A stretch of 64,000 nt of DNA from an uncultured Thermoleophilia bacterium (GCA_963790185.1 CAWBNR010000010.1:91499-155498), one strand, 5' to 3'. Shown: positions 2,428-28,899, counted from the first letter of the stretch. Notes: generated from the letters alone by a model not told the origin. Numbers and translations are program-made.

Positions 2428-3345
2428 ATGGGCGAGCCGCCCGTCTCCACGAGTGAGTCGCCGTCCGCCACGGGCGAGCCGCCGTACCCGCTTCATCTGC
2501 AGCGCCTCGCCGAGCAGTACCTCGAGGCGCTCGATTTCGGCGCCGACCGGCGCGCCGCCAGGCTCGTCGAGGCGATGCGCTACTCGCTGCTGGCCGGCGG
2601 CAAGCGGATCCGCCCGGTGCTGGCGCTGGCCGTCGCCGAGAGCCGCGGCGTCGACCCCTCCTCGGTGCTGCCGACGGCGGCCGCGCTCGAGCTGATCCAC
2701 ACCTACTCGCTGATCCACGACGACCTGCCGTCGATCGACGACGACGCGCTGCGCCGCGGCCGCCCGACCTGTCACGTGGTCTACGGCGACGACGTCGCGA
2801 TCCTCGCCGGCGACGGTCTCTTCGCCGAGGCCTTCCACCTCGTGCTTGAGGGCCAGCCGGCGGATGCCGCTACCCTCCTCGCGGTGGTCGCCGAGATCGC
2901 TCGCGCGACCGGCGTGACGGGCATGGTCGGCGGCCAGTACATGGACGTCGCGGGCCTGGCCGCCGACCACGACGACCTCGACACCATGCACGGGCTCAAG
3001 ACCGGGCGCCTCATCGAGGCCGCGGTCGTCGGGGGGGCGTTGCTGACAGGCGCCGGGGAGCGTGAGGTCGCGGCGTACCGGACGTTCGCCGCCGAGATCG
3101 GCCTGCTCTTCCAGGTCGTCGACGACATCCTTGACGAGACCGGCGATGCCGAGGCGCTCGGCAAGACCGCCGGCAAGGACCGTTCGCAGGACAAGACCAC
3201 ATACCCCGCGCTCTTCGGCTTGGACGAGGCGCGCCGGATGGCGGAGGCGAGTCACCGGCGCGCCCTCGACGCGCTGCGCGCCCTCCCGGGTGACACCGCC
3301 GTCCTCGCCCAAGTGGCCGGCTACATCCTGCGCCGCCGGCACTGA
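2428..3345 (+). CDS. ispA: Polyprenyl (farnesyl/geranylgeranyl) diphosphate synthase
   Basis: The first Asp-rich motif LIHDDLPSIDDD and the second motif VVDDILD are present, along with GKRIRP. Confidence 0.9.
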   Translation: MGEPPVSTSESPSATGEPPYPLHLQRLAEQYLEALDFGADRRAARLVEAMRYSLLAGGKRIRPVLALAVAESRGVDPSSVLPTAAALELIHTYSLIHDDLPSIDDDALRRGRPTCHVVYGDDVAILAGDGLFAEAFHLVLEGQPADAATLLAVVAEIARATGVTGMVGGQYMDVAGLAADHDDLDTMHGLKTGRLIEAAVVGGALLTGAGEREVAAYRTFAAEIGLLFQVVDDILDETGDAEALGKTAGKDRSQDKTTYPALFGLDEARRMAEASHRRALDALRALPGDTAVLAQVAGYILRRRH

Positions 3346-3453
3346 GGCCGCGCGCACGGCGTCGCTGCTCGCGGGCATCGTCTCCTGAGGCTATGGGCTG
3401 GGACATCCCTCTATTGTGCTTGGCGACGGGCGCGGGATGCGGCAGTATCCGGT

Positions 3454-4149
3454 GTGAGAGGGCCAGACTCGACTCTGCGACGGACGGGCCGCCGCGGTCG
3501 TCGGGTCGAAGCAGCGCTCAGGCCGACGGAGCTTTGGGGGGTACGGATGGATCAAGGGCGGTCGATGACCGTGCGACAGCCCGGGCAGGGCTACCGCTGG
3601 TACCGTGCCGAGGCTTTCGGGTTCGCGATCGCCGTGCCGCGGCGGTTCGTGCCGCTGGCGGCCGCCGTGGACCCCGTCGCCAGGATGTTCTCCGGCGACA
3701 GGGGGACGGCGGCCGCAGGTCTGCCCCAGGGCTTCAGCGACCCGGAGGTCACGGTCACGGACCGGGACGGCAGCTCACGGCCGCTGCGCTCCCTCGAGTT
3801 CGCGGCGCCCGGCATCGATCCCGGCGAGCGCGCGCCGGGCGCGCGGACCCACGGGTGGCCTCACCTCCACGGCCGCACGACCGTGCCGCCTCTCCTCGAC
3901 TCGCTCCACCTGCCCGGCTTCACGCCGCTCGGCACGAAGGACTGTCGGCTGGGCGCGCACGAGGCCCTCGCCTTCGAGTACACGTGGCATGGCTTCGCCG
4001 GCGGGCGCCACAGCGGCGACCGCGGCCTCTTCGTCTGGTGGCGGAGCCCTGCTCGCGAGTACCACGTCTACCACCACTGCCCGCAGAAGGAGTGGGAGCG
4101 CTGGGAGAACGAGCTCGAGGCGATGTTGTCGACCTTCGTCGCGTTCTAG
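3454..4149 (+). CDS. Hypothetical protein. The start is uncertain, with internal ATGs at about 3547 and 3565.
   Basis: This is the only protein-like ORF in the interval. No recognisable motif was found. Confidence 0.4.
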   Translation: MRGPDSTLRRTGRRGRRVEAALRPTELWGVRMDQGRSMTVRQPGQGYRWYRAEAFGFAIAVPRRFVPLAAAVDPVARMFSGDRGTAAAGLPQGFSDPEVTVTDRDGSSRPLRSLEFAAPGIDPGERAPGARTHGWPHLHGRTTVPPLLDSLHLPGFTPLGTKDCRLGAHEALAFEYTWHGFAGGRHSGDRGLFVWWRSPAREYHVYHHCPQKEWERWENELEAMLSTFVAF

Positions 4150-4663
4150 CGGCGCTGCGAGGTGCGCCGGGGCGGCGTGGGTATCCGTCTGGGGCGTCTG
4201 CTAGCGTCCGCGAACGGTCGGCGCTCTTGGGGCTGGGGCGCCGGCCGCCTTCACACTCCGGTCGATAGCGGCCGACGGGGGGCCGCTACGCGGGCAGTCA
4301 TCGAAAGCGCCATCGTCCACCGGCCATTCGACTGATCTCGCGTTCGACCACCCCTGCGACGCGCGCATTCCGGCGCCGATCCGCGCAAATGTGACGCCCG
4401 CATCGGACGCCCGCGACGGGATCGACGCGGACCGCTCCGCTTGCGGCGTACGGCGAGTCGCTTCGACCCGGTCCAGTCGATTCGATTCGGTCCCGGCATC
4501 TCTGTCGAGGTGCGACGCGCTGAAGGCTTGACAGTGGACCCAGTGCCACAAGAAGGAGACTCGGACGCGGGCCCGGGATAAGGACTGGCGCAACGTGGTG
4601 AGCTGCACGGATCGGCCGTCACGTTTCGGCGGACAATCGCCGGAATGCGTCGGTCTGGGGGTG

Positions 4664-4798
4664 GTGGAACGCGGAATCAGCGGGATTCAGGGTGGGCGAT
4701 TGTGTTTTGAGGTATAGCCTGCGCGAGTGGGCCCGCCGTGCCCCAGACAGTCGCCCGTTCATCACGCGTGGAGCGCGGAATGGGCGTGGAACGCGGAA
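4664..4798. repeat. Three copies of the 13-mer GTGGARCGCGGAA (4664-4676, 4768-4780, 4786-4798). The last two form an 18-nt tandem.
   Basis: Read directly in the non-coding gap 4150-4999. Confidence 0.6.
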
Positions 4799-4851
4799 GG
4801 GGACGTGGCCGGCTGTCAGAGGCGGGCCCGTGGGGCGGCGCAGACGCAGAT

Positions 4852-4880
4852 GGGGCGGCGAGCCACAGGCTCGCCGCCCC
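4852..4880. terminator. GC-rich hairpin with a 13-bp perfect stem and 3-nt loop
   Basis: The sequence is GGGGCGGCGAGCC-ACA-GGCTCGCCGCCCC, lying between convergent genes. There is no U-tract. Confidence 0.5.
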
Positions 4881-4903
4881 GCCCGCGTCGATGTCGACGC
4901 GCC

Positions 4904-4941
4904 GAAAGCGCGGCCGGCCCATGGGGGCCGGCCGCGCTTTC
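4904..4941. terminator. GC-rich hairpin with a 17-bp perfect stem and 4-nt loop, just downstream of the M28 peptidase stop on the minus strand
   Basis: The sequence is GAAAGCGCGGCCGGCCC-ATGG-GGGCCGGCCGCGCTTTC. Confidence 0.55.
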
Positions 4942-4999
4942 CGGGCTGTGTCGGTCGTGGTCAGCCGCGACCGCCGCAGCCGGTGGAGCCGTCAGACTG

Positions 5000-6067
5000 T
5001 CAGAGCACCGCCGGCTCGTAGTCGATCGACTCCGTCACGTCGATGCTCTTCGGGTCGAGCACCCGGAGGAAGTCGAAGACCACCGTCGTGAAGGCGGTGA
5101 GGTGCTCCATGGGCCGCTCCGGGTAGAGCAGCTCGATCATCTCCAGGGTGTCCCAGGGAGTGTGCCAGAAGGATCCGTACTCCTCGGTCTGCTCGTAGCC
5201 GTCGAGGTCGCCGATCTCCCAGTTGGTCGACTCGAAGGCGGCGACCGGGATGTCGATCTGGTTGAAGGCGGTGTAGTCGCTGAAGCCGTTGGGCGTCGTG
5301 CCCGCCGGATACTTGTGGTTGAGCCCAAGCTGCGTCTCGATCGGGAGGTCGTTCAGCTCGGCGAGGCGCAGCATCTCGGTGCGTGCCCAGGTCCAGCCGT
5401 TGGTGCCGGAGTAGACGTAGAGCTTGTCGCCGACGATCAGCGAGTCGAGGTTGATCATGACGATGGCGCGGTCCCTGTCGGCCTTCGACATCGAGCGGGA
5501 GTAGCGGTTCGAGCCGATGAGGCCGACCTCCTCGGCGCCGAAGGCGACGAACACGAGGTCGTAGTCGATCTTGTAGCCCGCCATGCGCTCGGCGACCTCG
5601 AGCATGGCGCCGACGCCCGAGGCGTTGTCGTCGGCGCCCTGGCCGGCCTTCACAGCGTCGTAGTGCGCGCCGACGATGACCAGCGGGGTCGGCGCGCCGT
5701 TGCTCTTGAGATCGGCCGGCCGGTAGGCGACGACGTTCTGGCTCGTGTAGGCGACCCCGTCGCGCGTGTAGGTGAACGGCTGCAGCGCGGGCAGGTACCC
5801 GGCGTCGGCGAACCAGCCCTGCACCGTGAGCGCGGCCGCGTACTCGTCCTCGGTCCCGGCGACGCGCAGGAGGCCGGTGTAGGTGCCGTCCGGGTTGGTG
5901 ATGCGGGTCAGGGCGTCGATGTACGCGTAGGCGCTGTCGCCGATGTCGGACGGCAGCGGTGGCGGCGCCGGGCCCGCCGCCGCCAGCGGCGCCGCCAGCG
6001 CCATCGTCAGCAGCAGGACCGCCGCCAGGAGCAGGAGCGTGAGTGATCTGTGCGCAGTCGTGTGCAT
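5000..6067 (-). CDS. Secreted M28-family aminopeptidase
   Basis: There is an N-terminal signal-like segment (LTLLLLAAVLLLTMALAAPLAAA). M28 metal-ligand context is present: GAHYDAV..., GADDNASGV, and FVAFGAEEVGLIGS. Confidence 0.85.
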   Translation of the reverse strand: MHTTAHRSLTLLLLAAVLLLTMALAAPLAAAGPAPPPLPSDIGDSAYAYIDALTRITNPDGTYTGLLRVAGTEDEYAAALTVQGWFADAGYLPALQPFTYTRDGVAYTSQNVVAYRPADLKSNGAPTPLVIVGAHYDAVKAGQGADDNASGVGAMLEVAERMAGYKIDYDLVFVAFGAEEVGLIGSNRYSRSMSKADRDRAIVMINLDSLIVGDKLYVYSGTNGWTWARTEMLRLAELNDLPIETQLGLNHKYPAGTTPNGFSDYTAFNQIDIPVAAFESTNWEIGDLDGYEQTEEYGSFWHTPWDTLEMIELLYPERPMEHLTAFTTVVFDFLRVLDPKSIDVTESIDYEPAVL

Positions 6068-14789: not shown

Positions 14790-15536
14790 CTGGCAACCGC
14801 GGCATCGGCTGGGCCGAGGAGAGCTGGAACCCCACTACCGGCTGCACCAAGGTGAGCCCTGGCTGTGCGCACTGCTGGGCCGAGCGCATGGCGTGGCGGC
14901 TGCGGGGGATGGGTCAGGAGCGGTACGTCGCGCGGCTTCCAGGTCACCACGCACGAGGATCTGCTCGAGAAGCCGTTGCACTGGGTGAAGCCGCGGCTGG
15001 TCTACGTGAGCTTCATGGGTGACCTCTTCCACGACGAGGTGCCGGACGAGTTCATCGAGCGCGTGTTCGACGCGATGGAGCGCTCGCCGCGGCACCGCTT
15101 CCACCTGCTCACCAAGCGCCCGGAGCGGCTCGCAGGCTTGAGCCGGCGTCTGCCCTGGCCCGCCAACGTCTGGTCGGGCGCGACGGTGGAGGACGCTGCG
15201 CACCTCGGCCGCGCCGACCAGCTACGCCAGACCGGCGCGGCCGTGAAGTACCTCGTGCTCGAACCCCTCCTCGGCCACGTCGACGACCTCGATCTCACCG
15301 GCATCGACTGGATGATCGTCGGCGGCGAGTCCGGGCCCGGCGCGCGGCCGATGCACGCCGACTGGGTCAGGTCGGTCCGCGACCAGTGCGTCGCGGCCGG
15401 CGTGCCGTTCTACTTCAAGCAGTGGGGTGGCGTGCGCCGCAAGGAGACCGGGCGCGAGCTCGACGGACGGTTGTGGAGTGAGAAGCCGCAGGGCCCCGGC
15501 CAGCTCGGCTTCGGGGGAATGGAGGCGGTCGTCTGA
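14786..15536 (+). pseudogene. DUF5131 (phage Gp37/Gp68 family) protein with one +1 shift near 14930-14945
   Basis: The motif [30 protein letters not shown] is followed by [36 protein letters not shown] and FYFKQWGG. The ATGA overlap with the res stop is at 14786-14789. Confidence 0.8.
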
Positions 15537-18236
15537 TGCCGAGAGCCAGGAAACCCACCGGCCCCAAGCCCGTCGACTCCCTGCCGGCACCAGGACAAGC
15601 GCACCAACATCCCGACCAACGAGCTGCGCGGCTTCGTCGAGGGTGACGAAGCCGCGCCCGGCGCCATGCTCTACCCCCGCGACCCGTCGCTCGACCCGCA
15701 GCTCGTCTGGAAGGGCAAGGACGAGCAGGACGCCCGCGACCTCGAGGTGCCGGTCGTCCCCATCTACATCCAGGAGAAGATCCTGCCGCAGGTGATCATC
15801 GAGAACCTGCGCGACACGGCGCGCAAGGGCGAGCCCGAGCCCGAGATGACGCTCTTCAACGACTACGACGGCATCGAGTTCCAGGAGCTCGTCGAGTTCT
15901 ACCGCCACGAGCAGAACTGGGCCAACCGCATGATCCTCGGCGACTCGCTGCTGGTGATGACCTCGCTGGCCGAGAAGGAGGGCCTCAAGGGCAAGGTCCA
16001 GATGATCTACATGGACCCGCCCTACGGCATCAAGTTCGGCAGCAACTGGCAGGTGAGCACGCGCAAGCGCGACGTGAAGGACGGCAAGGCCGAGGACGCG
16101 ACCCGCCAGCCCGAGCAGATCAAGGCCTTCCGCGACACCTGGGAGCTCGGCATCCACTCGTACCTCGCGTACCTGCGCGACCGCCTGACGGTCGCGCGCG
16201 AGCTCCTCACCGAGAGCGGCAGCATCTTCGTGCAGATCGGCGACGAGAACGTGCACCTCGTGCGGTGCGTGATGGACGAGGTGTTCGGGAGCGAGAACTT
16301 CGTGATCGCAGATCGACTTCAGCAAGACGACCGGGGCAGCAGCCGCGATGCTACGCCGGCACGTCTGCGACTACCTTCTGTGGTACGCGAAGAGATCGAG
16401 AGTCGGCGAAGTACCGCCAGCTCTATCGTCGAGAAGGCCGTTCGGCGGTGAGGGCGGCGGCAAGTACGACGCGGCTGGAGCTGCCGGATGGTACACGACG
16501 ACGCTTGACGTCGCGGGAGCGGACGGATCCGAGCCTGCTGCCCGCCGGCGCTCGGGTCTTCCGACTCGACGACCTCACGTCAGCCAGAGCGTCGCGCGGG
16601 CAGGGACGCACGGCATCGTTCCCGGTCGACGTTGACGGACGGGAGTATCGTCGCCCGTCGAAGCGGCGGCTGGAAGACCAACGAGGAGGGCATGAGCACG
16701 CTCCTCGCGTGCCGGTCGAGCTTCAGGCGTACGGCGAACACCCTCGCGCTACGTGCGCTTCATCGACGACTTCCCGGCGTTTCCGCTGACCAACATCTGG
16801 ACGGACACTGGCAGCGTCCGGCTTCGCGCGACCCGAAGGTCTACGTCGTTCAGACCGCGACGCACGGTCATCGAGCGGTGCATGCTGATGACGACTGACC
16901 CGGGCGACCTGGTGCTCGATCCGACGTGCGGCAGCGGCACGACTGCCGTATGCGGCTGAGCAGTGGGGTCGCCGCTGGATCACGGTCGACACCAGTCGCG
17001 TGGCGCTCGCCCTCGCTCGCACGCGCCTCATGGGCGCGCGCTTCCCGTACTACCTGCTGGCGGACTCGCCCGAGGGCGCGAAGCGCGAGGCCGAGCTGAC
17101 CGGCGTCCCGCCGGCGACCTCGGCCTACTCGGGCGACGTCCGCAAGGGCTTCGTCTACAAGCGCGTCCCGCACATCACGCTGAAGTCGATCGCCAACAAC
17201 CCCGACATCCGCGAGGGCATGTCGCGCGAGGAGATCGACGCCGCCATCCGCCGCCACGCCGACACCGAGCTGCTCTACGACCAGCCCTACGAGGACCGCT
17301 CGCGCATCCGCGTGACCGGGCCGTTCACGGTCGAGAGCCTCTCGCCGCATCGGATGCTGGCGGGCGCGCGACGGCGAGCGAGCGCGGACGGGCCGGCCGG
17401 CGAAGCCCCGCCGGCCCGCGACGCCGCCGACTTCGTCACCATCATCCTCGACAACCTGCGCAAGGCCGGCGTCCAGAACACCTTCAAGGGCGAGCGCCTC
17501 GTCTTCGAGCGCATCGAGCCCTACGCCGGCACCTACGTCCAGGCCGTCGGCGAGTACACCGACGCCGCCGGCAAGACCCTCCGCGCCGCCATCTCCATCG
17601 GCCCCGAGTACGGCACCGTCGACGCCGACCTGGGTCAAGGAGGCCGCCAAGGAGGCGCGCAAGGGCGAGGGCTTCCCGATGCTCGTCGTCTGCGCCTTCG
17701 CCTTCGGTCCCTACGTGAACGAAGAGACCAAGCAGTGGCCCAACCTCACCATCCTCATCACGCGCATGAACCCCGACCTCGCCATGGACACCGCCGACCA
17801 GAAGCTCCTCAAGAGCACCGGCGCCGGCAACCTCTTCATGGTCTTCGGCGAGCCCGACCTCGAGCTGCGCACCCTCCCCGACGGCAAGCTGCAGGTGGAG
17901 CTCCACGGCCTCGACGTCTACGACCCCACCACCGGCGAGATCCGCAGCGACACCACCGACGAGATCGCCTGCTGGTTCATCGACACCGACTACAACGAGG
18001 AGAGCTTCTTCGTGCGCCACGCCTACTTCACCGGCGCCGACGAGCCCTACAAGAAGCTCCAGCGCGCCCTCAAGGCCGAGATCGACGAGGACGCCTGGTC
18101 GACCCTCTACAGCACCGTGAGCCGCCCGTTCGACCCGCCGTCGACCGGCAAGATCGCGGTGAAGGTGATCAACCACTACGGGGACGAGGTGCTGAAGGTG
18201 TACGAGTCTCAGTCGGCGGAAGCAGGATCGCGTTGA
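15536..18236 (+). pseudogene. mod: Type III Mod DNA methyltransferase (beta-class N6A/N4C), with about 14 +1 shifts as sequenced, mostly within 16300-16960
   Basis: MIYMDPPYGIKF (motif IV) lies upstream of LVLDPTCGSGTTAV (motif I). TGATG couples the start to the DUF5131 stop at 15534-15538. The long C-terminal region ends ...KVINHYGDEVLKVYE. Confidence 0.85.
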
Positions 18237-18318
18237 CCCACCACATTGTCGCGCCCTCAGCGGCCCGGGAGCATGAAGGGATTGCCCGGGTGCGCCGGCC
18301 TCGGAGCATCGTGTAGCC

Positions 18319-18807
18319 ATGGATAGTGACCGCTTGGGCGAACTACGGGACTACGCATGGAACTACTTCTCACTCCACACCGACCAGCGGCTCAGGACCT
18401 TTCATTTCTACGTGTTGCTGTCGACTGTGATCGTGGGCGCGCTACTCACCGTCGCCAAGGGGTCGCACGACGCGATTGTGAGCTGCCCGCTGGCCTTCGG
18501 ACTAGCGTTCGTGTCGTTCGTGTTCTGGAAGCTCGACTTGCGAAACAAAGAACTGGTTCGTTACGGCGAGGAGGCCCTGAAGTCGCTCGAGGCAGATTCG
18601 GGGGAGGAGTGCGCGAACGAGGCTGCCAGCCCGATCGCAATCTTCTCACGAGAGGAATCGGTGACGGCGATGCGTCGCCGTGGCTTTCGAGCCTTCGTAG
18701 CGCGGCCCCTCAGCTACTCGGCATGCTTCAATCTCGTCTTTGCCGCTTTCGGGATGTCTGGATTGGTCGCGGGGGTGGCCCTGCTGATCTCGGGCTTGGC
18801 AGGCTGA
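18319..18807 (+). CDS. Hypothetical 3-TM membrane protein
   Basis: The 162-aa ORF has hydrophobic helices at about aa 29-50, 55-78 and 135-160. It lies 82 nt downstream of mod on the same strand. Confidence 0.6.
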   Translation: MDSDRLGELRDYAWNYFSLHTDQRLRTFHFYVLLSTVIVGALLTVAKGSHDAIVSCPLAFGLAFVSFVFWKLDLRNKELVRYGEEALKSLEADSGEECANEAASPIAIFSREESVTAMRRRGFRAFVARPLSYSACFNLVFAAFGMSGLVAGVALLISGLAG

Positions 18808-18981
18808 GGAAGAGAGCCGGTGGCCTTTGCACTCGACCACTATTCTGGTCTCGGTCACCACCTCTGCCGAGACAGCGCGGCCGTCCACCGCGTCTCGTGG
18901 TCCGCGCCGGCTGCGTTGGTACCCCGGGCAGGCCGAGAGGTAACGAGGTCTGTCCTGGCGACCGCGCGCCGCGAAGGGTCC

Positions 18982-18987
18982 TAGAAT
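18982..18987 (+). promoter_or_regulatory. -10 box TAGAAT 9 nt upstream of ATG 18997, giving a leaderless or near-leaderless transcript
   Basis: Read directly. There is no Shine-Dalgarno sequence between the box and the ATG. Confidence 0.4.
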
Positions 18988-18996
18988 AGTCGGGCC

Positions 18997-20469
18997 ATGG
19001 ACTTCCTTCTTGATACAAACGTGCTGATTCCCGCCGAGCCAACCTCGCCGGGCGACGTGGAGATGGGCACGCCCGTTATCGTCGAACTCCTGCGGCTGGT
19101 GCGCACCGCAGGTGGACGCCTTCTCGTGCACCCGGACGCGTACACCGAAATCGGGCGTGACCACGACGAAGTCAGGCGATCCCTGCGCCTCGCCTTGGCC
19201 GGGAAGTACCCTCGTCTCGACTCCCCTCCAGGTCTTTCGGAGGACCTCGCGCGAATAATCGGCGAGCCGGATCCCGAGTCTCATGACGCGGTGGACGCCA
19301 GGCTTCTCGAGGCGATTCGATCCGGGCGCGCCGACATTCTCGTCACCGACGACGCAGGGCTGCATCGAAGGGCGCGGTCGGCCGACCTCGGCGATCGAGT
19401 CCTTACCTTGTCCGATGCTCTACTGCTTGCCCGCCAGCTTCATGAGCCCACGCCGGTCGCCCCACCGGCGGCTCGGGCCGTGTCGGCGGCACAGCTGAGC
19501 TGTGCGGACCCGATATTCGAGGACCTGCGCGCCGAGTACTCGGGCTTTGACGATTGGCTGGCCAAGGCGGCTCGGCTTCATCGGCACGCGTGGGTCGTCG
19601 AGCGCGACGGCAACAGGTACGCAGCGGTGGCCATCGTGAACGAGGAGACTCCTCTCGAACACGGGCTGCCGGGCAAGCTCCTCAAAGTGTGCACCTTCAA
19701 GGTTTCGGACGACCACCAGGGCAACCGCTATGGCGAGCTATTGCTGAAAGCGATCCTCGATTATGCCGCCGCTCACGGTTACGAAACGCTCTTCGTGGAG
19801 GCGAAATCAGACAAGCTGTTTCTTTTCGAGTTCCTCGAGCAGTTCGGCTTCCGTCGGCTTGACGTTCTGAAGGATGGGACCGATCCGGTGCACGCGAAAT
19901 CGTTGCGGCCTCCCGTAGGAGGAGCGGTGGATCTGTCGCCTTTGCAGTTCCACATCGCGTTCGGACCGCCAGCGCTACGATGGGAGGGCGTACCCGCGTT
20001 CATCGTGCCTATCAGGCCGGAGTATCACGAGCGGCTCTTCCCTGAGGCCGAGCCGCAGCTCTCCCTACTGAACGACACCGAGGCACACGGCAACGGGATT
20101 CGCAAGGCGTACCTGTGTCGCGCCAACACGCGACGGATCGAGCCGGGCAACCTTCTGTACTTCTATCGATCCGCCAGCTCCACGCTCACAGTGGTGGGGG
20201 TGGCCGAGGACGTGAACGTGCTATCCGACCCTGCTGGTATCGTGAGGGCGGCAGGAAAGCGTACGCTTTACACGTATCAGCAGATTGAGGAGATGGTCGT
20301 TGGGGAGCGCGAAGTCCTCGTGATTGGTCTTCGACAGGCGCGTGTGCTGAGGCCGCCGGTCGAATACGCCGAGCTCTTTGGGGGAGGCGTCCTCAGAGGA
20401 CGACCGCGAAGCGTGATGTCGATCGGCGAGGAGGCGGCACGATGGCTTGCGCAGAGAGTCGGGTTGTAG
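18997..20469 (+). CDS. PIN-domain / GNAT acetyltransferase / ASCH-like (PUA-fold) triple-domain protein
   Basis: The PIN domain shows MDFLLDTNVLIP... and ILVTDDAGLHRRA. The GNAT domain shows KVSDDHQGNRYGELLLKAILDYAAAHGYETLFVEA...FGFRRL. The C-terminal part (FIVPIRPEYHERLF...LLYFYRS...VVGVAEDV...RPRSVMSI) parallels the next gene. Confidence 0.7.
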   Translation: MDFLLDTNVLIPAEPTSPGDVEMGTPVIVELLRLVRTAGGRLLVHPDAYTEIGRDHDEVRRSLRLALAGKYPRLDSPPGLSEDLARIIGEPDPESHDAVDARLLEAIRSGRADILVTDDAGLHRRARSADLGDRVLTLSDALLLARQLHEPTPVAPPAARAVSAAQLSCADPIFEDLRAEYSGFDDWLAKAARLHRHAWVVERDGNRYAAVAIVNEETPLEHGLPGKLLKVCTFKVSDDHQGNRYGELLLKAILDYAAAHGYETLFVEAKSDKLFLFEFLEQFGFRRLDVLKDGTDPVHAKSLRPPVGGAVDLSPLQFHIAFGPPALRWEGVPAFIVPIRPEYHERLFPEAEPQLSLLNDTEAHGNGIRKAYLCRANTRRIEPGNLLYFYRSASSTLTVVGVAEDVNVLSDPAGIVRAAGKRTLYTYQQIEEMVVGEREVLVIGLRQARVLRPPVEYAELFGGGVLRGRPRSVMSIGEEAARWLAQRVGL

Positions 20470-20957
20470 TGCTTCTGCCGATCAAGCCGCGCTATGCGGA
20501 GCCGATCATGGCCGGCCGCAAGCGCGTGGAGTTCCGTAAGATCCCCTTTGCGCGTGCGCCGTCCCACGTGGTCGTCTACGCGAGCAGTCCGGTCAAGCAG
20601 GTGCTCGGGTACTTCGAGGTCTCTGACATCGATATCGACGACGTTGACGCACTGTGGGCAAAGCACGCGCGGGTCGGCGGCATCGCGGAGGACCAGTTCG
20701 CGCGGTACTTCTGTGGGCGCGATGCCGGCGTGGCCATCGGTGTCGGGCGCGTCGTCACAGCCGGGCGCCCCATGGCGCTCGCTGACCTCGGTCTGAGCGG
20801 GCGGCCTCCTCAGAGCTTCAGTTACGTCGATGCTGCGGTCCTCGGCAGGCTGCAGGACGAGGGTACGCGGAACCAGGATTGGGCAGGCACAGCACGTCGC
20901 GCTCGGTTGCGGGGGCGCCGCTGCTGGCGGACTCGTCCCGGTCTCGAAGCCGGCTGA
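20469..20957 (+). CDS. ASCH-domain protein. The start is taken as GTG 20469, overlapping the upstream TAG, with ATG 20442 as the alternative.
   Basis: The segments LLPIKPRYAEPIMAGRKRVEFRK (GxKxxExR), VVVYASSPVKQVLGYFEV and RPPQSFSYV are present. Confidence 0.7.
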   Translation: MLLPIKPRYAEPIMAGRKRVEFRKIPFARAPSHVVVYASSPVKQVLGYFEVSDIDIDDVDALWAKHARVGGIAEDQFARYFCGRDAGVAIGVGRVVTAGRPMALADLGLSGRPPQSFSYVDAAVLGRLQDEGTRNQDWAGTARRARLRGRRCWRTRPGLEAG

Positions 20958-20979
20958 AGCGGCGCCAGCGAACGGCGAA

Positions 20980-21324
20980 GTGACACCACGCGTCGCCACC
21001 AACGCCTTCATCGCCAACACCGACTTCGGCTGGTTCTCGCACTTCCTGCACCGCGCCGAGCCGCCGGACGAGGTCGACTTCTGGCAGCCCTCGCCGCACG
21101 GCTTCAAGGCGATCCCGCCGGGCGCGCCGTTCTTCTTCCGTCTCGGCGCGCCCCACAAGGCCATCGCCGGCTTCGGCTTCTTCGCGCGCTACGAGCGCGT
21201 GCCCGCGTGGCTCGCCTGGGAGTCCTTCGGCGACCTGAACGGCACCGACACCTTCGCCGAGATGACGGCGCGCATCGAGGCGATCCGCCGCCGCACCGGG
21301 GAACTCCTACTCCAAGGGGCTTGA
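20980..21324 (+). CDS. Truncated N-terminal domain of an actinobacterial family usually annotated HNH endonuclease (possibly a PUA-like reader). No HNH part is present. It may be fused to the next ORF if one extra base is an artefact.
   Basis: The sequence reads FIANTDFGWFSHFLHRAEPPDEVDFWQPSPHGFKAIPPGAPFFFRL...IAGFGFFARYERVPAWLAWESFGDLNGTDTFAEMTARIEAIRRR. The stop at 21322-21324 is followed by ATG 21326 in the +1 frame. Confidence 0.55.
   Translation: MTPRVATNAFIANTDFGWFSHFLHRAEPPDEVDFWQPSPHGFKAIPPGAPFFFRLGAPHKAIAGFGFFARYERVPAWLAWESFGDLNGTDTFAEMTARIEAIRRRTGELLLQGA
21006..21096. repeat. 91-nt direct repeat, copy 1. It matches 25362-25452 at 90 of 91 positions.
   Basis: Manual ungapped alignment at a constant offset of 4356 nt. 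The single mismatch is 21075 C versus 25431 T. Confidence 0.9.
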
Positions 21325-21325
21325 G

Positions 21326-22975
21326 ATGCCGACCAATCGCGAAGTCCTGCCCGACTACCTCGCCCGCTACCAGCGGGTCGTCTTCGTGGGGACTGCGGCA
21401 GGGAACGCCTCCGCGAGCCTCGGTCACTACTACGCCAGCCAGGGCAACGCGTTCTGGGAACTGCTCTACGGTGCGGGCCTCACGACGTCCAGCCTTGAGC
21501 CTCGCGAGGATGCGTGGGTTCTGGTAGACAGGATCGGGCTGACCGATCTCTACAAGCACCACCACGGCATGGACGATACGCTGCCCGCTGACGGCCACGA
21601 CATCGGGCGCTTCGTCGGGAAGATCGAGAAGCACGCGCCTGACTGGGTCGCCTTCACGAGCAAAGCCGCCGCCCGGACCGCCGCGAAGCTTCTGGACCGT
21701 TCCGCAGACTTGGTGCACCTTGGGCCGCAGGCCGACTGGCAGATCGGTCGCAGCCGAGTGTTCGTTCTGCCCAGCCCAAGTGGGGCCAATCGTGGGCGGA
21801 GCGGCCTGGAGGGGAGGGCGAGCCGGCTTGAGTGGTACGCAGAGCTCCGCGACTGCGCGTGGCCGCAGGCAGAAGTTCCCCGTTGCCTGGGCAGGGCGCT
21901 CTGCTCAGAGTTGCTGCGTGCGCTGCGGTTTGGTCACTTGCGCCCGCTGCTCTCGGCAACGCTGAGGGATACCACGCTGGATCTGGAGTTCCGCGGCAAT
22001 GCCTTCAACATCTACTACCGTGGCGGCAGCCTGGTCTCCGTGAACCGCAACCCGTCGACAGGTGAGCTGGTCTGCAAGTTCGATCCTGAGTACACGGACA
22101 CGACCCATAGCCGCGGCCGCGCTCCAAAGAAGGGGGCACCGAAGGCCGCCATGGACCTGCCCGACCGCAAGGTGGACACACTCGACGCTGTCACGGCGTG
22201 GGTCGATCTATTCCCGCGGCTCAAGAGCGCGATGGATGTCTACTTCGGCAACCCCAGCCATCCGAAGGAGGAGCGTCAGTACTCTCAGGAGACGGTGCGC
22301 TCTAACAACTTCGGCTCTGCCTGCGACAAGACGGACTACGTGATGGCCGACCTCGAGTACAAGGCGGCCTGCGCGTGGGAAGACCCCGGCGAGGGGCCGA
22401 GGAAGAAGGGCATGTACTTCGATCTCGTGGGTGCGTACTGGCCGTCCACCGGCGCATCCCGGCGAAACCCCGACAAGCTGCGGCTCTCCATCATCGAGGT
22501 GAAGTACCGCGACGCCGTGCTACAGGGTGAGCAAGGGCTCGTGGAGCACATGCGCGACGTCATGCGCTGGTTCGCACCCGAGAAGGTGGCGGCGCTCAAG
22601 ACGGAGATGCTCGCGGTGCTGCAACAGAAGCACTACCTGGGGCTGATCTCCTCCGCCAAGCCTCCGACGGGCTTCGATGGTGGGCGGGTCGAGTATCTGG
22701 TTCTTCTGGCGGATCACGACCCCGGCTCCCGCGTTCTTCACAACGTGCTGTCACAGGTCGAGCGCGAAAGGCCGCTGGCCGGCCCGGACGGCGTCGATGT
22801 CGTCGATCTTCGCTTCTGCACGGGGACGTTCATGGGCTACGGCATTTGGAGGGAAGGCCTCAAGACGTTGGCAGAGCTGCGGTCCAGCCATGACCGCCAG
22901 ATCTACTCCAGATCGTCGTCACGCGGGACGAGCACACCTGGGATGCCCCCATCTCTGGTACCAGCAGAAGGGTGA
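21326..22975 (+). CDS. MUG/TDG-family (UDG family 2)-like DNA glycosylase domain fused to a C-terminal putative PD-(D/E)xK nuclease domain
   Basis: The N-terminus aligns by eye with E. coli Mug. VVFVGTAAGNASASLGHYYASQGNAFWELLYGAGLT corresponds to VFCGINPGLSS...ANRFWKVIYQAGFT, and VFVLPSPSGAN corresponds to WVLPNPSGLS. The C-terminus has MYFDLVG followed 24 aa later by LSIIEVKY. Confidence 0.65.
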   Translation: MPTNREVLPDYLARYQRVVFVGTAAGNASASLGHYYASQGNAFWELLYGAGLTTSSLEPREDAWVLVDRIGLTDLYKHHHGMDDTLPADGHDIGRFVGKIEKHAPDWVAFTSKAAARTAAKLLDRSADLVHLGPQADWQIGRSRVFVLPSPSGANRGRSGLEGRASRLEWYAELRDCAWPQAEVPRCLGRALCSELLRALRFGHLRPLLSATLRDTTLDLEFRGNAFNIYYRGGSLVSVNRNPSTGELVCKFDPEYTDTTHSRGRAPKKGAPKAAMDLPDRKVDTLDAVTAWVDLFPRLKSAMDVYFGNPSHPKEERQYSQETVRSNNFGSACDKTDYVMADLEYKAACAWEDPGEGPRKKGMYFDLVGAYWPSTGASRRNPDKLRLSIIEVKYRDAVLQGEQGLVEHMRDVMRWFAPEKVAALKTEMLAVLQQKHYLGLISSAKPPTGFDGGRVEYLVLLADHDPGSRVLHNVLSQVERERPLAGPDGVDVVDLRFCTGTFMGYGIWREGLKTLAELRSSHDRQIYSRSSSRGTSTPGMPPSLVPAEG

Positions 22976-23091
22976 GTGTCTGCGGTTGATGGTCTGTGCC
23001 GCGGAGCGACTCCGACTCCACTCGCGTGGCGGCTTGGGCGCTCCCGTGCCTGGTGGCTTGGGCCCTGTCATCGCGCCCGGTCAGCCCGACT

Positions 23092-23241
23092 TCACGCCCC
23101 GCACCCGCGCCTGAACCCGAACACGATGCCGACCAGCAGAAGGATCAGTGCGATGATCAGGATCCAGCGCAGCGCTTCGACGAAGAGACCGATGCCGCCG
23201 AAGATGAGCGCCAGGATCAGCAGGAGAATGACCAACCACAT
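23092..23241 (-). CDS. Small hydrophobic protein of 49 aa with two predicted TM helices. It is below the ORF-track length cut-off.
   Basis: Translated by hand as MWLVILLLILALIFGGIGLFVEALRWILIIALILLLVGIVFGFRRGCGA. The RBS GAGGAGGG lies 5-6 nt upstream of ATG 23241. Confidence 0.55.
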   Translation of the reverse strand: MWLVILLLILALIFGGIGLFVEALRWILIIALILLLVGIVFGFRRGCGA

Positions 23242-23682: not shown

Positions 23683-24912
23683 ATGAGCAAGGACGATCGA
23701 CTTCCCTATCTCCACGCGCTGGCCCATCTGCGCACGCCGGACGAAGCACCGTGGACTGATCGCCGGTACGGCAAAACCCCTGACGATGATCCGCGACCAG
23801 CCTTCGAGCGGGACCGCGACCGCATCATCCACAGTGAGTACTTCCGCCGGCTGCAGCACAAGACGCAAGTCCTCATCGTGACCGAGGGCGATCTCTACAG
23901 CACGCGTCTCATGCACTCGGTCGAGACAGCGCAGGTTGGCCGGTCTCTTGCCTGCTCACTCGGCCTCAACGCTCCGCTCGCGGAGGCCATCTGCCTCGGC
24001 CACGACGTCGGTCACACACCGTTCGGCCACCAGGGTGAGGAGACTCTCAAGCGGTTACTCGATGATCATGGGGGCTGGGACTCGAACCACCACTCGCTGC
24101 TTGTCCTCGACGAGATCGAGGTGCAGTACCCGGCGCATCTCGGGCTCGATCTCACGATGGCGGTTCGTGAGGGCATCGCGCGCCACAAGACCGCCTACGA
24201 TGACCCTGCGGTGGGCTACGGGTCGGGCTCCGAGCTTGGTGCTCACAAGTCTCCCTCGCTCGAGGCTCAGACCGGCAACGTGGCCGATGAGGTGGCCTAC
24301 GTGAGTCATGATGTTCACGATGCTCTTGAGCACGGGTTGGTCACTCGCGACGAGCTCGGCGACGCGCTCTCTGAGGTGAGCCTGTGGCGGCGAGCGAGTG
24401 TCAAGACCGATGCCGAGATCAAGTCGATTCATCCTGAGGGGTGGAAAGGCGTCGACGAGTGGAAGCTGACGGTCCGGTGGTTGCATCGCAACCTGATCTC
24501 GATACTGCTCGACGACGTGCTGACGGAATCGGCTCGGCGTGGGGCTGGGCACGCCGATCTGCTCGCCGCTCGCGATGACCCAACGCCGGTCATCGCCTTC
24601 TCTGATGAGATGCGTCCACAGCTCGATCGCGTACGCGGCTACCTCCACGAGCGCGTGTACAAGGGCCCGCTGGTCGCGCGGCAGAACGCCAAGGCCGACC
24701 ACGTCCTGGAGAGGCTGTTCGAGACGCTGTGCGCCAAGAGGCTGCTGCTGCCGTGGCATGTCCAGCAGCGGATCAACGGCTCCGAGGACGCCACGGTCAT
24801 CGCCAAGAACGTCGCCCTGTTCCTTGTCAGTCTCACCGACAGGGCCGCCATCGACTTGTACGGCGAGCTGTTCATCCCGTCCGACCGTGCCATGGGGCAC
24901 CATGTGCACTGA
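23683..24912 (+). CDS. dGTPase-family dNTP triphosphohydrolase (HD domain)
   Basis: The segments FERDRDRIIHSEYFRRLQHKTQV, RLMHSVETAQVGRSL and GHDVGHTPFGHQGEE are present. Confidence 0.85.
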   Translation: MSKDDRLPYLHALAHLRTPDEAPWTDRRYGKTPDDDPRPAFERDRDRIIHSEYFRRLQHKTQVLIVTEGDLYSTRLMHSVETAQVGRSLACSLGLNAPLAEAICLGHDVGHTPFGHQGEETLKRLLDDHGGWDSNHHSLLVLDEIEVQYPAHLGLDLTMAVREGIARHKTAYDDPAVGYGSGSELGAHKSPSLEAQTGNVADEVAYVSHDVHDALEHGLVTRDELGDALSEVSLWRRASVKTDAEIKSIHPEGWKGVDEWKLTVRWLHRNLISILLDDVLTESARRGAGHADLLAARDDPTPVIAFSDEMRPQLDRVRGYLHERVYKGPLVARQNAKADHVLERLFETLCAKRLLLPWHVQQRINGSEDATVIAKNVALFLVSLTDRAAIDLYGELFIPSDRAMGHHVH

Positions 24913-27196: not shown

Positions 27197-27517
27197 GTGA
27201 AGATTCGCTCAGACAGAGACATCGGGGTGCGTATTGCCGGCCTGCTTGGCGATCGGCCCCAGCGAGAGCTTGCCGAGGCGGTGGGCATGCAGCCACCCGT
27301 GCTGAGTCGGGCACTGGCGGGCGAGAGGGCGTTCAACATGTCTGAGGTCGTCGATATCGCTGACTACCTTGGAGTCCCCGCCGAGGAGCTGCTGTTCGAT
27401 GAGCAGCCGGCGTTCGTCAAGCGCGGTGCGGCGGACGATGGCGCCACGAACGACGCCATCGTCCGCTGTTCGAGACTCATCGACGCCATGCTGCAGATCG
27501 AGGCCGTCGGCCGATGA
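27197..27517 (+). CDS. XRE-family HTH regulator
   Basis: The HTH segment RELAEAVGMQPPVLSRALAGERAFNMSEVVDIADYLGV is present. GTG 27197 follows GGAGGGAGG. Confidence 0.7.
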   Translation: MKIRSDRDIGVRIAGLLGDRPQRELAEAVGMQPPVLSRALAGERAFNMSEVVDIADYLGVPAEELLFDEQPAFVKRGAADDGATNDAIVRCSRLIDAMLQIEAVGR

Positions 27518-28308
27518 CCTACATCTCCGAGCTCGAGAGGGGTGAGGCGGCCGCCAGACTGGCTCGCGTTCGCCTCGGCCTGGGGCTCGAGGTGCCGGTG
27601 GCGGACATCGTGCTCGGGATCGAGGACCTCGCGGGCATCCCCGTCACGGTGCTCGCGCTGCCGGGGGGGCTTGCCGGCCTCCAAGGCCGCAAGCACGACC
27701 GCAGCTTCATCTTTGTGAATGGGGCCGACTCGGCGGTGCGGCAGCGTTTCACCCTCGCTCATGAGTTCGGGCACGTCGAGCTGGGTCACATCGGGTCGGT
27801 GGACTACACGACGGACGTGTTCGGTGAACGGGGCCGGCCGCCGGCAGAGGTCCAGGCCGACGGGTTCGCGAGCGAGTTCCTCGCTCCAGCCGATGGGGTA
27901 CGACGCTGGCTGGCAGCGATGGGCGAGCCACCTGACGACCTCGATACCGTCGTGCGTCTCGCGGAGTACTTCCATGTCAGCGCTGAAGCCGCTCTCTATC
28001 GCCTGCAGAGGGCACGGCACCTGACCAAAGGCAGGGTCGAGGCCATCAAGTCGCGCATCGCTGCGGGCGAGCACAGTGCACTCTGCCGTCGTCTGGGCCT
28101 GGGCGAGCACGAAGACACACTGAGCCACGCACACGGCGACCTGCCGCGCATGCCTCGGGCCACCATCACGGAGGCCGCCACCGCCTACGAGCGCGGCCTC
28201 CTGACGGTCGAGCAGATCGCGCGACTTCTCGAGGTCGACCCGGATCGCGTGCACGGCGAGTTCGACCGTCGCGGCATTCAGCCGGGCCGCCACGAGCCAG
28301 ACTACTGA
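27514..28308 (+). CDS. ImmA/IrrE-family (COG2856) zinc metallopeptidase
   Basis: The HEXXH motif lies within FTLAHEFGHVELGH. There is an ATGA overlap with the XRE stop. Confidence 0.8.
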   Translation: MTYISELERGEAAARLARVRLGLGLEVPVADIVLGIEDLAGIPVTVLALPGGLAGLQGRKHDRSFIFVNGADSAVRQRFTLAHEFGHVELGHIGSVDYTTDVFGERGRPPAEVQADGFASEFLAPADGVRRWLAAMGEPPDDLDTVVRLAEYFHVSAEAALYRLQRARHLTKGRVEAIKSRIAAGEHSALCRRLGLGEHEDTLSHAHGDLPRMPRATITEAATAYERGLLTVEQIARLLEVDPDRVHGEFDRRGIQPGRHEPDY

Positions 28309-28314
28309 GTCTTC

Positions 28315-28899
28315 ATGCGCTCGCAGTCGGCAGAGGAGCTTCTGCTCGACGCCAGCGTGCTCTGTCGCTTCGCCGAGCACGGGCTGCTTGCTGCACTCCG
28401 TAGCTACCTGGCCGACCGTGCTCGCATCACGCGTGAGGTCGAGCGCGAGCTGCTTCGTCTTGCCGATACTTCGGAGTTCCGGCAGCTCCATGACCACCTC
28501 GCCAGCGCTGGGTCGGTTGCGCGAGTGCGAGGAAGGTGGCCCAAGCGGACCAAGAACCTGCCCGATGGTCTGAAGCCCGAGTTCGCGAGGATCCTCGGCC
28601 TGAAGCGCTCGCTCGGCGAGCACGAGCGCGCCCACGCGGGCGAGATTGCCACGGTACTCATGGCCGCTCACCGCCACACGAGCTTGGTTGTGATCGATGA
28701 CAACTGGGGGAGCGACCTCGCGAGGAAGACCTACGGCCTCGATGTGATGTCGACCGCACGGCTCGCTCAGGAGATGGTCGTCGCCGGTGCGCTTCCCGTG
28801 GGCGAGGGTTTCAAGGTGTTCGACAGCGCCACGCCTCGCGACGTAGGACGCGCGCGATACGACGCGAGCCTGCAACGACTGCGTTCGAAGGGCTCATGA
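28315..28899 (+). CDS. PIN-like nuclease domain protein
   Basis: The acidic quartet context is LLLDASVL, TREVEREL, AGEIATVLMA and LVVIDDNWG. Confidence 0.55.
   Translation: MRSQSAEELLLDASVLCRFAEHGLLAALRSYLADRARITREVERELLRLADTSEFRQLHDHLASAGSVARVRGRWPKRTKNLPDGLKPEFARILGLKRSLGEHERAHAGEIATVLMAAHRHTSLVVIDDNWGSDLARKTYGLDVMSTARLAQEMVVAGALPVGEGFKVFDSATPRDVGRARYDASLQRLRSKGS

Follow-up and report, generated by a model that had tools for sequence, protein, structure and literature searches.

A PIN-GNAT-PUA-like gene and its overlapping ASCH partner in an uncultured Thermoleophilia bacterium: a member of the PDC-M11 family and candidate toxin-antidote or defence module

Introduction

What might a bacterial gene pair do that couples a protein of three fused domains to a small ASCH protein, and has such a pair been described before? 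These questions are raised by two overlapping open reading frames, ORF1 and ORF2, on a stretch of 64,000 nucleotides (the window) from an uncultured Thermoleophilia bacterium (GCA_963790185.1 CAWBNR010000010.1:91499-155498). The original prediction, made from the sequence alone, proposed that ORF1 combines a PIN, a GNAT and a beta-rich C-terminal domain, that the next gene encodes an ASCH protein, and that the two form a toxin-antidote or abortive-infection module of an architecture not found in any described toxin-antitoxin (TA) or defence family. Here we report a computational analysis of the pair. It is almost certainly a member of the known PDC-M11, or PIN-GNAT-PUA + ASCH, family, and ORF1 may act as the effector of a toxin-antidote, abortive-infection or defence module. 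Coordinates of all features are collected in Table 1.

Results

Identity of the gene pair

Codon-position GC contents of 0.72/0.44/0.74 for ORF1 and 0.72/0.53/0.79 for ORF2 are coding-like for a high-GC sequence, and ORF1 is a 490-aa frame with the peptide motifs that the original prediction quoted for it. The PADLOC hidden Markov model for PDC-M11A (PDLC04421) matched ORF1 with E=4.9e-162, aligning residues 1-488 with profile positions 1-484 of 486, and the PDC-M11B model (PDLC04425) matched ORF2, which adjoins ORF1 on the same strand, with E=5.7e-39. Both genes thus match their models end to end and are adjacent in the same orientation, with no structural difference from PDC-M11. Homologues of ORF1 are full-length, have a uniform size of about 490 aa and keep the N-terminus MxFLxDTNVLIP; the nearest, with 65% identity, comes from a Thermoleophilia metagenome-assembled genome.

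The claim that no TA or defence family with this architecture had been described did not hold, since both proteins match PDC-M11A/B and the operon appears in earlier papers. In Matelska et al. (2017), a second gene of PUA/ASCH type accompanies the described PIN-GNAT-PUA fusion, whose PIN domains are placed in PIN_15/PIN_17. Bell, Wolf & Koonin (2020) described operons of the type "(PIN)-GNAT-EVE", nearly always with an ASCH gene and located near type I restriction-modification (RM) and other defence systems, proposed a TA function for them, and reported fusions of ASCH with HsdS and of a helix-turn-helix (HTH) domain with ASCH. Bell et al. (2020) credit Iyer et al. (2013) with the first description and with the hypothesis of nucleic-acid acetylation, which is also cited by Matelska et al. 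(2017). The operons of these three papers resemble our pair in that a second PUA-like (ASCH) gene comes after the gene of a PIN-GNAT-PUA-like fusion, in lying close to RM and other defence genes, and in their predicted role in TA or nucleic-acid modification. PDC stands for phage defence candidate, PDC-M11 being multi-gene candidate no. 11; Payne et al. (2024) inferred the PDC families from genes found within BREX, DISARM or type I RM systems. As PDC-M11 is a computational candidate only, membership in it is uninformative on mechanism.

A relative without the PIN domain is annotated in GenBank PV340567.1 (Escherichia phage PhiR47_2, lambdoid) as toxin GevT and antitoxin GevA; the pair lies directly after cI, at 3944-5372 of the examined stretch of that record, and its genes overlap by 23 nt. 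GevT and GevA fall into the same PADLOC families as ORF1 and ORF2 (E=2e-133 and 7e-52), GevT is 24% identical to ORF1 residues 171-443 (E=7e-22), and GevA aligned with the ORF2 family by hhalign at E=1.2e-39 and a probability of 100%. GevT, with 357 aa, is phage-borne and lacks a PIN domain, whereas ORF1 carries the PIN domain in addition. On the lambda map, the site after cI is that of rexAB. Of 5,426 complete E. coli genomes, 275 contain the PIN-less form (at least 99% identical DNA), and the RefSeq names of the pair there read 'hypothetical protein | ASCH domain-containing protein'.

Domain composition of ORF1

The three domains proposed for ORF1 were borne out by Pfam, PDB profile and Foldseek matches. 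For the N-terminal domain, ORF1 alone matched Pfam PIN_3 with E=0.0044, under the Pfam cut-off; 18 of 25 N-terminal domains of the family matched PIN_3 (best E=6.8e-7) and others PIN_5 or PIN. No PIN chain was found among PDB sequences at E<=5 with the full-length family profile, so a structure model was needed. The AlphaFold model of the domain (pLDDT, the predicted local distance difference test, 87.6) matched almost solely PIN nucleases in the PDB when searched with Foldseek (Utp24, SMG6, VapC11/15/4, HARP/PRORP), with modest scores (E 5e-3 to 5e-2, template modelling (TM) score 0.4-0.64). Residues D6, E/D51, D100 and D119 are conserved at 98-100% in the family, and the conserved acidic residues, as aligned, fit a PIN acidic site.

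The middle of ORF1 (residues 178-285) matched the Pfam family PF00583, Acetyltransf_1, with E=9.6e-9 and 36 bits against a curated cut-off of 20.7, and a profile of 62 ORF1 family sequences matched the solved GNATs PaiA, Naa50 and RimI in the PDB. With the same profile, no TacT, AtaT, ItaT or KacT chain was found among the PDB matches at E<=5. The family has its own form of motif A, K230-x-C-T-F-K-V-x5-G242-x-R244-Y-G246-E-L-L-L-K. Column frequencies reach 100% at K230 and G246 and at least 94% at E247-L250, and conservation as extreme as this suggests that a ligand or catalytic site still works.

Searches of the C-terminal domain of ORF1 against Pfam ASCH and EVE gave no match at E<=1. Its AlphaFold model (pLDDT 90.3, predicted TM score 0.87) had as top PDB match in Foldseek the Zymomonas protein ZmASCH (E=1.2e-7, target-normalised TM score 0.81, root mean square deviation 2.4 A), followed by EVE (2ar1, 2gbs, THYN1) and YTH folds at E 1e-4 to 1e-2, the three EVE structures lying between 3e-4 and 2e-3. 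The PUA-like fold of the domain is confirmed at the level of this model, and an unrelated beta-rich fold is ruled out by the same ZmASCH, EVE and YTH matches. The specific EVE label is partly supported: Bell et al. (2020) call the C-terminal domain EVE, and weak sequence matches to EVE proteins were seen (1zce, 2ar1; E~0.02), whereas the nearest solved structure here is ZmASCH at 1.2e-7 as against about 3e-4 for EVE.

The original prediction had pointed out that this domain parallels the product of the next gene segment by segment. The alignment of the domain with the ORF2 family by hhalign (E=1.9e-4, probability 47%, 132 columns) paired the same four segments. In the profile alignment the Lys and Glu of the ASCH octapeptide are replaced by P353 and S356. 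With these catalytic residues replaced, the C-terminal domain of ORF1 appears to be a paralogue of the partner protein that is catalytically dead.

ORF2 and the ASCH family

The signature GRKRVEFRK noted in the second gene is present, and ORF2 matched Pfam ASCH (PF04266) with 24.3 bits, above the curated cut-off of 21.2. A profile built from 43 ORF2 family sequences matched ZmASCH (5gus, 5guq, 5y6b, 5y6c) over its full length with E=1e-30; judged by this match, the Zymomonas ASCH protein cited in the original prediction belongs to the same family as ORF2 and has a solved structure. Invariant among the 43 sequences are K27, E30, R32, Y46, P50, W72, Y89 and P123. The octapeptide G-x-K-x-x-E-x-R (GRKRVEFR in ORF2, with G25, K27, E30 and R32) places the protein in the GKER subgroup, as it does ZmASCH (PDB 5GUQ/5GUS). 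The core of ORF2 (aa ~10-140) is conserved and its Arg-rich tail (aa ~141-171) is not; this tail is an addition relative to ZmASCH.

ZmASCH binds ssRNA and ssDNA and, with Mg2+, cleaves ssRNA, not DNA (Kim et al. 2017, PMC5615036). Its residues Y47, K53 and S128, probed by mutagenesis in that work, correspond to Y46, K52 and S125 of ORF2. The protein was studied there alone, and neither an operon nor an acetyltransferase is mentioned in Kim et al. (2017). According to a 2026 preprint, 19 ASCH proteins including ZmASCH removed N4-acetylcytidine (ac4C) at position 34 (ac4C34) from tRNA in vitro. Chemically, ASCH enzymes hydrolyse the amide of N4-acylcytidine. YqfB-type N4-acylcytidine amidohydrolases are stand-alone proteins of about 100 aa with a GK[T/S]R octapeptide, whereas ORF2 has Glu at that place and 171 aa, and its nearest solved relative is ZmASCH, not YqfB.

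An ASCH-fold hydrolase is also found in an anti-phage operon, Brig3-BapA, where BapA erases DNA base glucosylation and was compared structurally to ZmASCH (Mejia-Pitta et al. 2026 preprint). That system may be likened to ours by analogy: it joins a glycosylase of the uracil-DNA glycosylase (UDG) family, acting on 5-hydroxymethylcytosine (5hmC) DNA, to a deglucosylase on phage DNA, and BapA consists of two beta-barrels. The partner there is the UDG-family glycosylase, whereas here it is the PIN-GNAT-PUA protein.

The classical TA families offer partial likenesses. GNAT/RHH type II systems (TacAT, AtaRT, ItaRT, KacAT) share with our pair a presumed toxin of GNAT fold and a two-gene layout; they have an upstream RHH/DUF1778 antitoxin, whereas here a downstream ASCH enzyme accompanies a toxin candidate fused to PIN and PUA-like domains. 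With VapBC the pair shares the PIN fold with its acidic quartet, and VapC11, VapC15 and VapC4 were among the structural matches (TM 0.5-0.64, E>=2e-2). VapC is a stand-alone PIN toxin of about 130 aa with VapB upstream; here, in contrast, the PIN domain belongs to a 490-aa fusion without a VapB-type antitoxin, the gene 5' of ORF1 encoding an 8xMP-like membrane protein and not VapB.

Gene junction and expression signals

The original prediction placed the gene overlap at TAGTG. This sequence is present at 20467-20471 and the genes do overlap; the start of ORF2 is likelier to be elsewhere. We examined the junction in 80 loci, namely 79 fetched loci and the window. ORF2 probably starts at ATG 20442, giving an overlap of 28 nt rather than starting at the GTG of TAGTG, as judged from the conserved junction. 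A start within the ORF1 Trp codon was seen in 74 of the 80 loci (59 ATG, 11 GTG, 4 TTG), and a Shine-Dalgarno-like run occupies the equivalent place in 60. In 40 of 80 fetched loci the nearest in-frame ORF2 start lies 28 nt inside the 3' end of ORF1. ORF2 homologues begin with MA-x(5-8)-V-x-LL-x-I-x-P, and it is the 171-aa product that is on public record and not the 162-aa form. GTG 20469 was set aside as the preferred start in view of the public 171-aa form and the conserved Trp-codon start. A single frameshifted polypeptide, which the original prediction had allowed for with a frame shift near 20440-20470, is excluded, since the two-ORF arrangement was found in 79 of 79 loci; ORF2 lies in a different frame.

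The TAGAAT hexamer noted 5' of the first ATG is present and includes an in-frame stop just 5' of ORF1. A consensus scan of 18200-23200 found no full sigma-70 promoter, and so none 5' of ORF1, and no Shine-Dalgarno motif was found between TAGAAT and ATG 18997. Given the lack of that motif, a leaderless or near-leaderless mRNA stays possible, and TAGAAT is a possible promoter of such a transcript by its sequence and position.

Pairing, spread and mobility

Wherever downstream DNA was available, in 79 of 79 loci, an ASCH gene stood immediately 3' of the ORF1 homologue, and any other neighbour family recurred in 8 of 80 loci at most. As the neighbours are not conserved, the cassette appears to function autonomously. 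Relatives were found, in a patchy distribution, in at least 232 of 185,579 GTDB species representatives, from Actinomycetota, Chloroflexota, Myxococcota, Planctomycetota, Verrucomicrobiota, Armatimonadota, Spirochaetota, Cyanobacteria, Acidobacteriota and other phyla, and an exhaustive profile search gave 1008 representative clusters at E<=1e-30.

Relatives were also found on 28 plasmids, haloarchaeal ones included. The Methanothermobacter prophage psiM100 (NC_002628.3) has a full-length PIN-GNAT-PUA gene, ORFD (492 aa), overlapped by ORF5 (129 aa), which matches the ASCH partner (hhalign E=1.9e-32); going by these matches, the cassette is also present in an archaeal virus. It lies there (2501-4346 of the examined stretch) in the 'inserted fragment IFa' that sets psiM100 apart from psiM2.

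On the Rhizobium etli plasmid pRetIE4771b (5106-8090 of the examined stretch), a gene for a helix-turn-helix protein, presumably HTH-ASCH, overlaps the PIN-GNAT-PUA gene from its 5' side, a small AAA ATPase gene overlaps the 3' end of the latter, and NACHT and ABC-3C genes are nearby. This gene order matches the alpha-proteobacterial variant of Bell et al. (2020). In the window pair, by comparison with such rhizobial variants, the ASCH protein lacks an HTH and an AAA_17 ATPase gene is absent.

Local island

The original prediction had also placed the pair in a conflict-system island. This agrees with a GC content of 0.64-0.66 in the 18-28 kb stretch, as against 0.70-0.75 in the flanks, and with the methyltransferase fragments, the DUF5131 protein, the dGTPase and the CapP-like peptidase nearby (Table 1). 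The DUF5131 protein, 5' of the methyltransferase remnants, is by its profile matches another candidate defence component. The remnants cover positions 78-290, 647-788 and 795-981 of the 983 in PDLC03632, the middle of the model being missing, and would represent either a decayed pseudogene or assembly indels. The 8xMP-like gene is not conserved beside the cassette in other loci.

Downstream of ORF2, the 114-aa ORF had no match in Pfam, NCBIfam, PADLOC or PDB sequences. It adjoins the gene of the 549-aa protein, in which about 370 aa of unassigned function are fused after the Mug/TDG domain. Together they may form a Brig1/Brig3-like anti-phage pair, in which a sensor domain that is otherwise attached to HNH would be teamed with a glycosylase; elsewhere this pair is not conserved beside the cassette. 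The IrrE/M78 peptidase and the 194-aa ORF may be a regulator-effector pair. Among the neighbours of cassette loci in general were type I methyltransferases, MADS and type IIG genes.

Table 1. Features of the gene pair and its surroundings in the window
Feature	Position	Strand	Remarks
ORF1	18997..20469	+	490 aa, PDC-M11A-type PIN-GNAT-PUA-like protein, predicted effector/toxin
PIN domain (aa 1-158)	18997..19470	+	Conserved acidic D6, E14, E51, D55, D100, D119
GNAT domain (aa ~165-311)	19489..19929	+	Pfam PF00583, PDB GNAT matches
C-terminal PUA-like domain (aa 312-490)	19930..20466	+	ORF2/ZmASCH paralogue, predicted reader/targeting domain
TAGAAT, -10-like hexamer	18982..18987	+	Seen in sequence; includes in-frame stop just 5' of ORF1
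GAGGAGG, ORF2 Shine-Dalgarno	20428..20434	+	Within ORF1 coding sequence (EE codons), 7 nt before ATG 20442
ORF1/ORF2 overlap, 28 nt	20442..20469	+	ORF2 ATG formed by last base of codon 482 and TG of invariant Trp483
ORF2	20442..20957	+	171 aa, PDC-M11B-type ASCH protein of ZmASCH/GevA family, predicted enzymatic antidote
DUF5131 protein	14865-15536	+	Pfam E=6e-71; PADLOC PDC-M41B E=2.9e-76, PDC-M30B E=4e-72
Type III-like methyltransferase fragments	15666-18236	+	PADLOC PDLC03632, three reading frames
8xMP-like predicted membrane protein, 162 aa	18319-18807	+	E=8e-5, under cut-off; 190 nt 5' of ORF1
114-aa ORF	20980-21324	+	40-46% identity to non-catalytic N-domain of 'HNH endonuclease'/'putative restriction endonuclease'
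Mug/TDG glycosylase fusion, 549 aa	21326-22975	+	aa 7-175 vs Deinococcus MUG E=1.4e-18
HD-domain dGTPase	23683-24912	+	PADLOC defence dGTPase model E=3.5e-77
IrrE/M78 peptidase, CapP/RmrA-like	27514-28308	+	E=3.8e-22
194-aa ORF	28315-28899	+	7 nt after peptidase; weak PDC-S70 (PIN-type) similarity

Discussion

The strict pairing of the two genes, their fixed-ratio co-translation, their mobility and their defence contexts together indicate an autonomous toxin-antidote or abortive-infection module. That the pair is such a module, or another kind of defence module, with ORF1 as the effector, has in our judgement slightly better than even prospects. The two-gene toxin-antidote inference of the original prediction agrees with that of Bell et al. 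(2020) and with the GenBank annotation of GevT/GevA. Which gene is toxic, what it targets, any acyl transfer and phage defence are points that we infer.

In the mechanism that we propose, the cassette would be a self-contained, horizontally mobile conflict module, working as a toxin-antidote or abortive-infection pair. The dead PUA-like domain would place ORF1 on a specific nucleic acid, probably tRNA or another RNA and possibly at a modified base, the GNAT-fold domain would modify or sense this target, and the PIN domain with its intact acidic site would cleave RNA. ORF2, presumably made in fixed proportion through its overlapping, Shine-Dalgarno-driven start inside ORF1, may act on the same nucleic-acid feature, either by stripping an acyl mark or by competing for or processing the site. 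ORF1 would thereby be kept harmless enzymatically and not by simple protein masking; with the ASCH active site of ORF2 invariant, an antidote that works enzymatically on nucleic acid is favoured over a simple protein inhibitor. By analogy, BapA provides a precedent for an ASCH-fold eraser in a defence operon.

Several observations weigh against this proposal. Payne et al. (2024, 10.1101/2024.01.29.577857) count PDC-M11 as one of 145 candidates that are still untested, our literature search found no experimental report on the PIN-bearing form, and it found no publication behind the GevTA names, so that these labels rest on the GenBank record alone. A toxin-first gene order is atypical of classical type II TA systems. 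Structural support for the PIN domain is moderate at the level of the model (Foldseek E>=5e-3). In the GNAT domain the motif A loop, x-G242-x-R244-Y-G246, has Arg where the canonical Gly is expected, and motif B reads F283-G284-F285, the usual Tyr being absent; according to Matelska et al. (2017) the GNAT of the PIN-GNAT-PUA fusion lacks motif A and is probably inactive. ZmASCH had no lowering effect on ac4C in vivo and did not hydrolyse the ac4C nucleoside. Finally, the linkage of this subfamily to defence genes may fall short of universal: when the 118 closest neighbours from 38 loci were scanned, each PADLOC model had at most 4 matches, in an aggregated scan that gives per-model counts only, without a per-locus rate or background.

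How the module would work can be put in more than one way. In the writer/eraser model of the original prediction, acetylation of a nucleobase or aminoacyl-tRNA falls to the GNAT domain, the PUA-like domain selects the substrate, the PIN domain cuts the marked RNA and ORF2 deacetylates. The acylated position would be, for example, N4 of cytidine, either in tRNA or in the nucleic acid of an invader, and the ORF2 deacylase would reverse the mark continuously until infection upsets the balance. The significant GNAT fold with its extremely conserved core, the removal of ac4C34 from tRNA by ASCH proteins including ZmASCH, the invariant octapeptide of ORF2 and the nucleic-acid acetylation predicted by Iyer et al. 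(2013), as relayed by Bell et al. (2020) and Matelska et al. (2017), make this model coherent and plausible. We nevertheless consider it unlikely as it stands, given the non-canonical motif A and the missing Tyr of motif B, the absence of TacT, AtaT or KacT structures from the PDB profile matches at E<=5, the failure of ZmASCH on the ac4C nucleoside and in vivo, and the fact that an acetylated product has been shown for no member. The degenerate GNAT motifs would instead suit a PIN RNase toxin in which the GNAT domain is catalytically dead and serves as a sensor (perhaps of acyl-CoA) or a scaffold, and in which RNA cleavage alone kills. ORF2 would then neutralise ORF1 either at the shared RNA, which it would compete for or trim, or by binding ORF1 directly, with the paralogous PUA-like domain as the contact. 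This agrees with the conserved acidic quartet of the PIN domain, with the binding and cleavage of ssRNA by ZmASCH, and with the paralogy of the C-terminal domain and ORF2, which could heterodimerise or compete. Yet GevT-type proteins of the same family are annotated as toxins and have no PIN domain, so toxicity cannot hinge on PIN alone, and so strongly conserved a GNAT core suggests that a ligand or catalytic site has been kept; both the mode of killing and this route of neutralisation therefore strike us as doubtful, a little more so than the writer/eraser model.

Two further explanations leave the TA scheme altogether. ORF1 might acylate DNA bases or target modified phage DNA, with the ASCH protein as reader or eraser, in an accessory of DNA base modification that is not a TA system. 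The association with type I RM and the ASCH-HsdS and HTH-ASCH fusions (Bell et al. 2020) speak for this, as do the definition of PDCs by embedding in RM, BREX or DISARM, the type I methyltransferase, MADS and type IIG genes among the neighbours, and, within the window, the type III methyltransferase fragments upstream and the Mug-type glycosylase pair downstream; BapA erases DNA base glucosylation, and ZmASCH binds ssDNA. The neighbours are, however, not conserved, the lambdoid-phage copies stand alone after cI, and ZmASCH cleaves no DNA. VapC-type PIN domains are RNases. We regard a DNA-directed role as improbable. Still less credible, and disfavoured here, is a housekeeping pair for RNA modification, for instance a writer and an eraser of tRNA acetylation without a role in conflict. 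PUA, ASCH and GNAT domains are indeed common in translation-related RNA modification (Bell et al. 2020), but a housekeeping function would sit poorly with the patchy spread among species representatives, the variable neighbours, the local GC content below that of the flanks, the copies on plasmids and in prophages, and a PIN-less form confined to 275 of the complete E. coli genomes.

The family itself was thus already known, from a defence-prediction database and three comparative-genomics papers, and its PIN-less relative had been named in GenBank. New here are ZmASCH as the nearest solved structure to the C-terminal domain of ORF1, the lack of the paralogue's catalytic residues in that domain, the conserved start of ORF2 inside the ORF1 Trp codon, and the tie of both ZmASCH and GevA to the same cassette.

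The toxin-antidote or defence reading of the cassette concerns a sizeable family (about 1000 clusters at E<=1e-30, with the PIN-less form in 5% of complete E. coli genomes) that appears biochemically unexplored. The cassette joins two topics that have been studied separately, the structure and nuclease/deacetylase activity of ZmASCH on the one hand and GNAT-PUA "toxins" on the other, and it offers experimental handles in the apparently dead C-terminal paralogue, the invariant active site of ORF2 and the ORF2 start within an invariant Trp codon. If the writer/eraser model were true, this would be the first TA or defence system to rely on the reversible acylation of nucleobases, and it would give ZmASCH-type ASCH proteins their physiological substrate.

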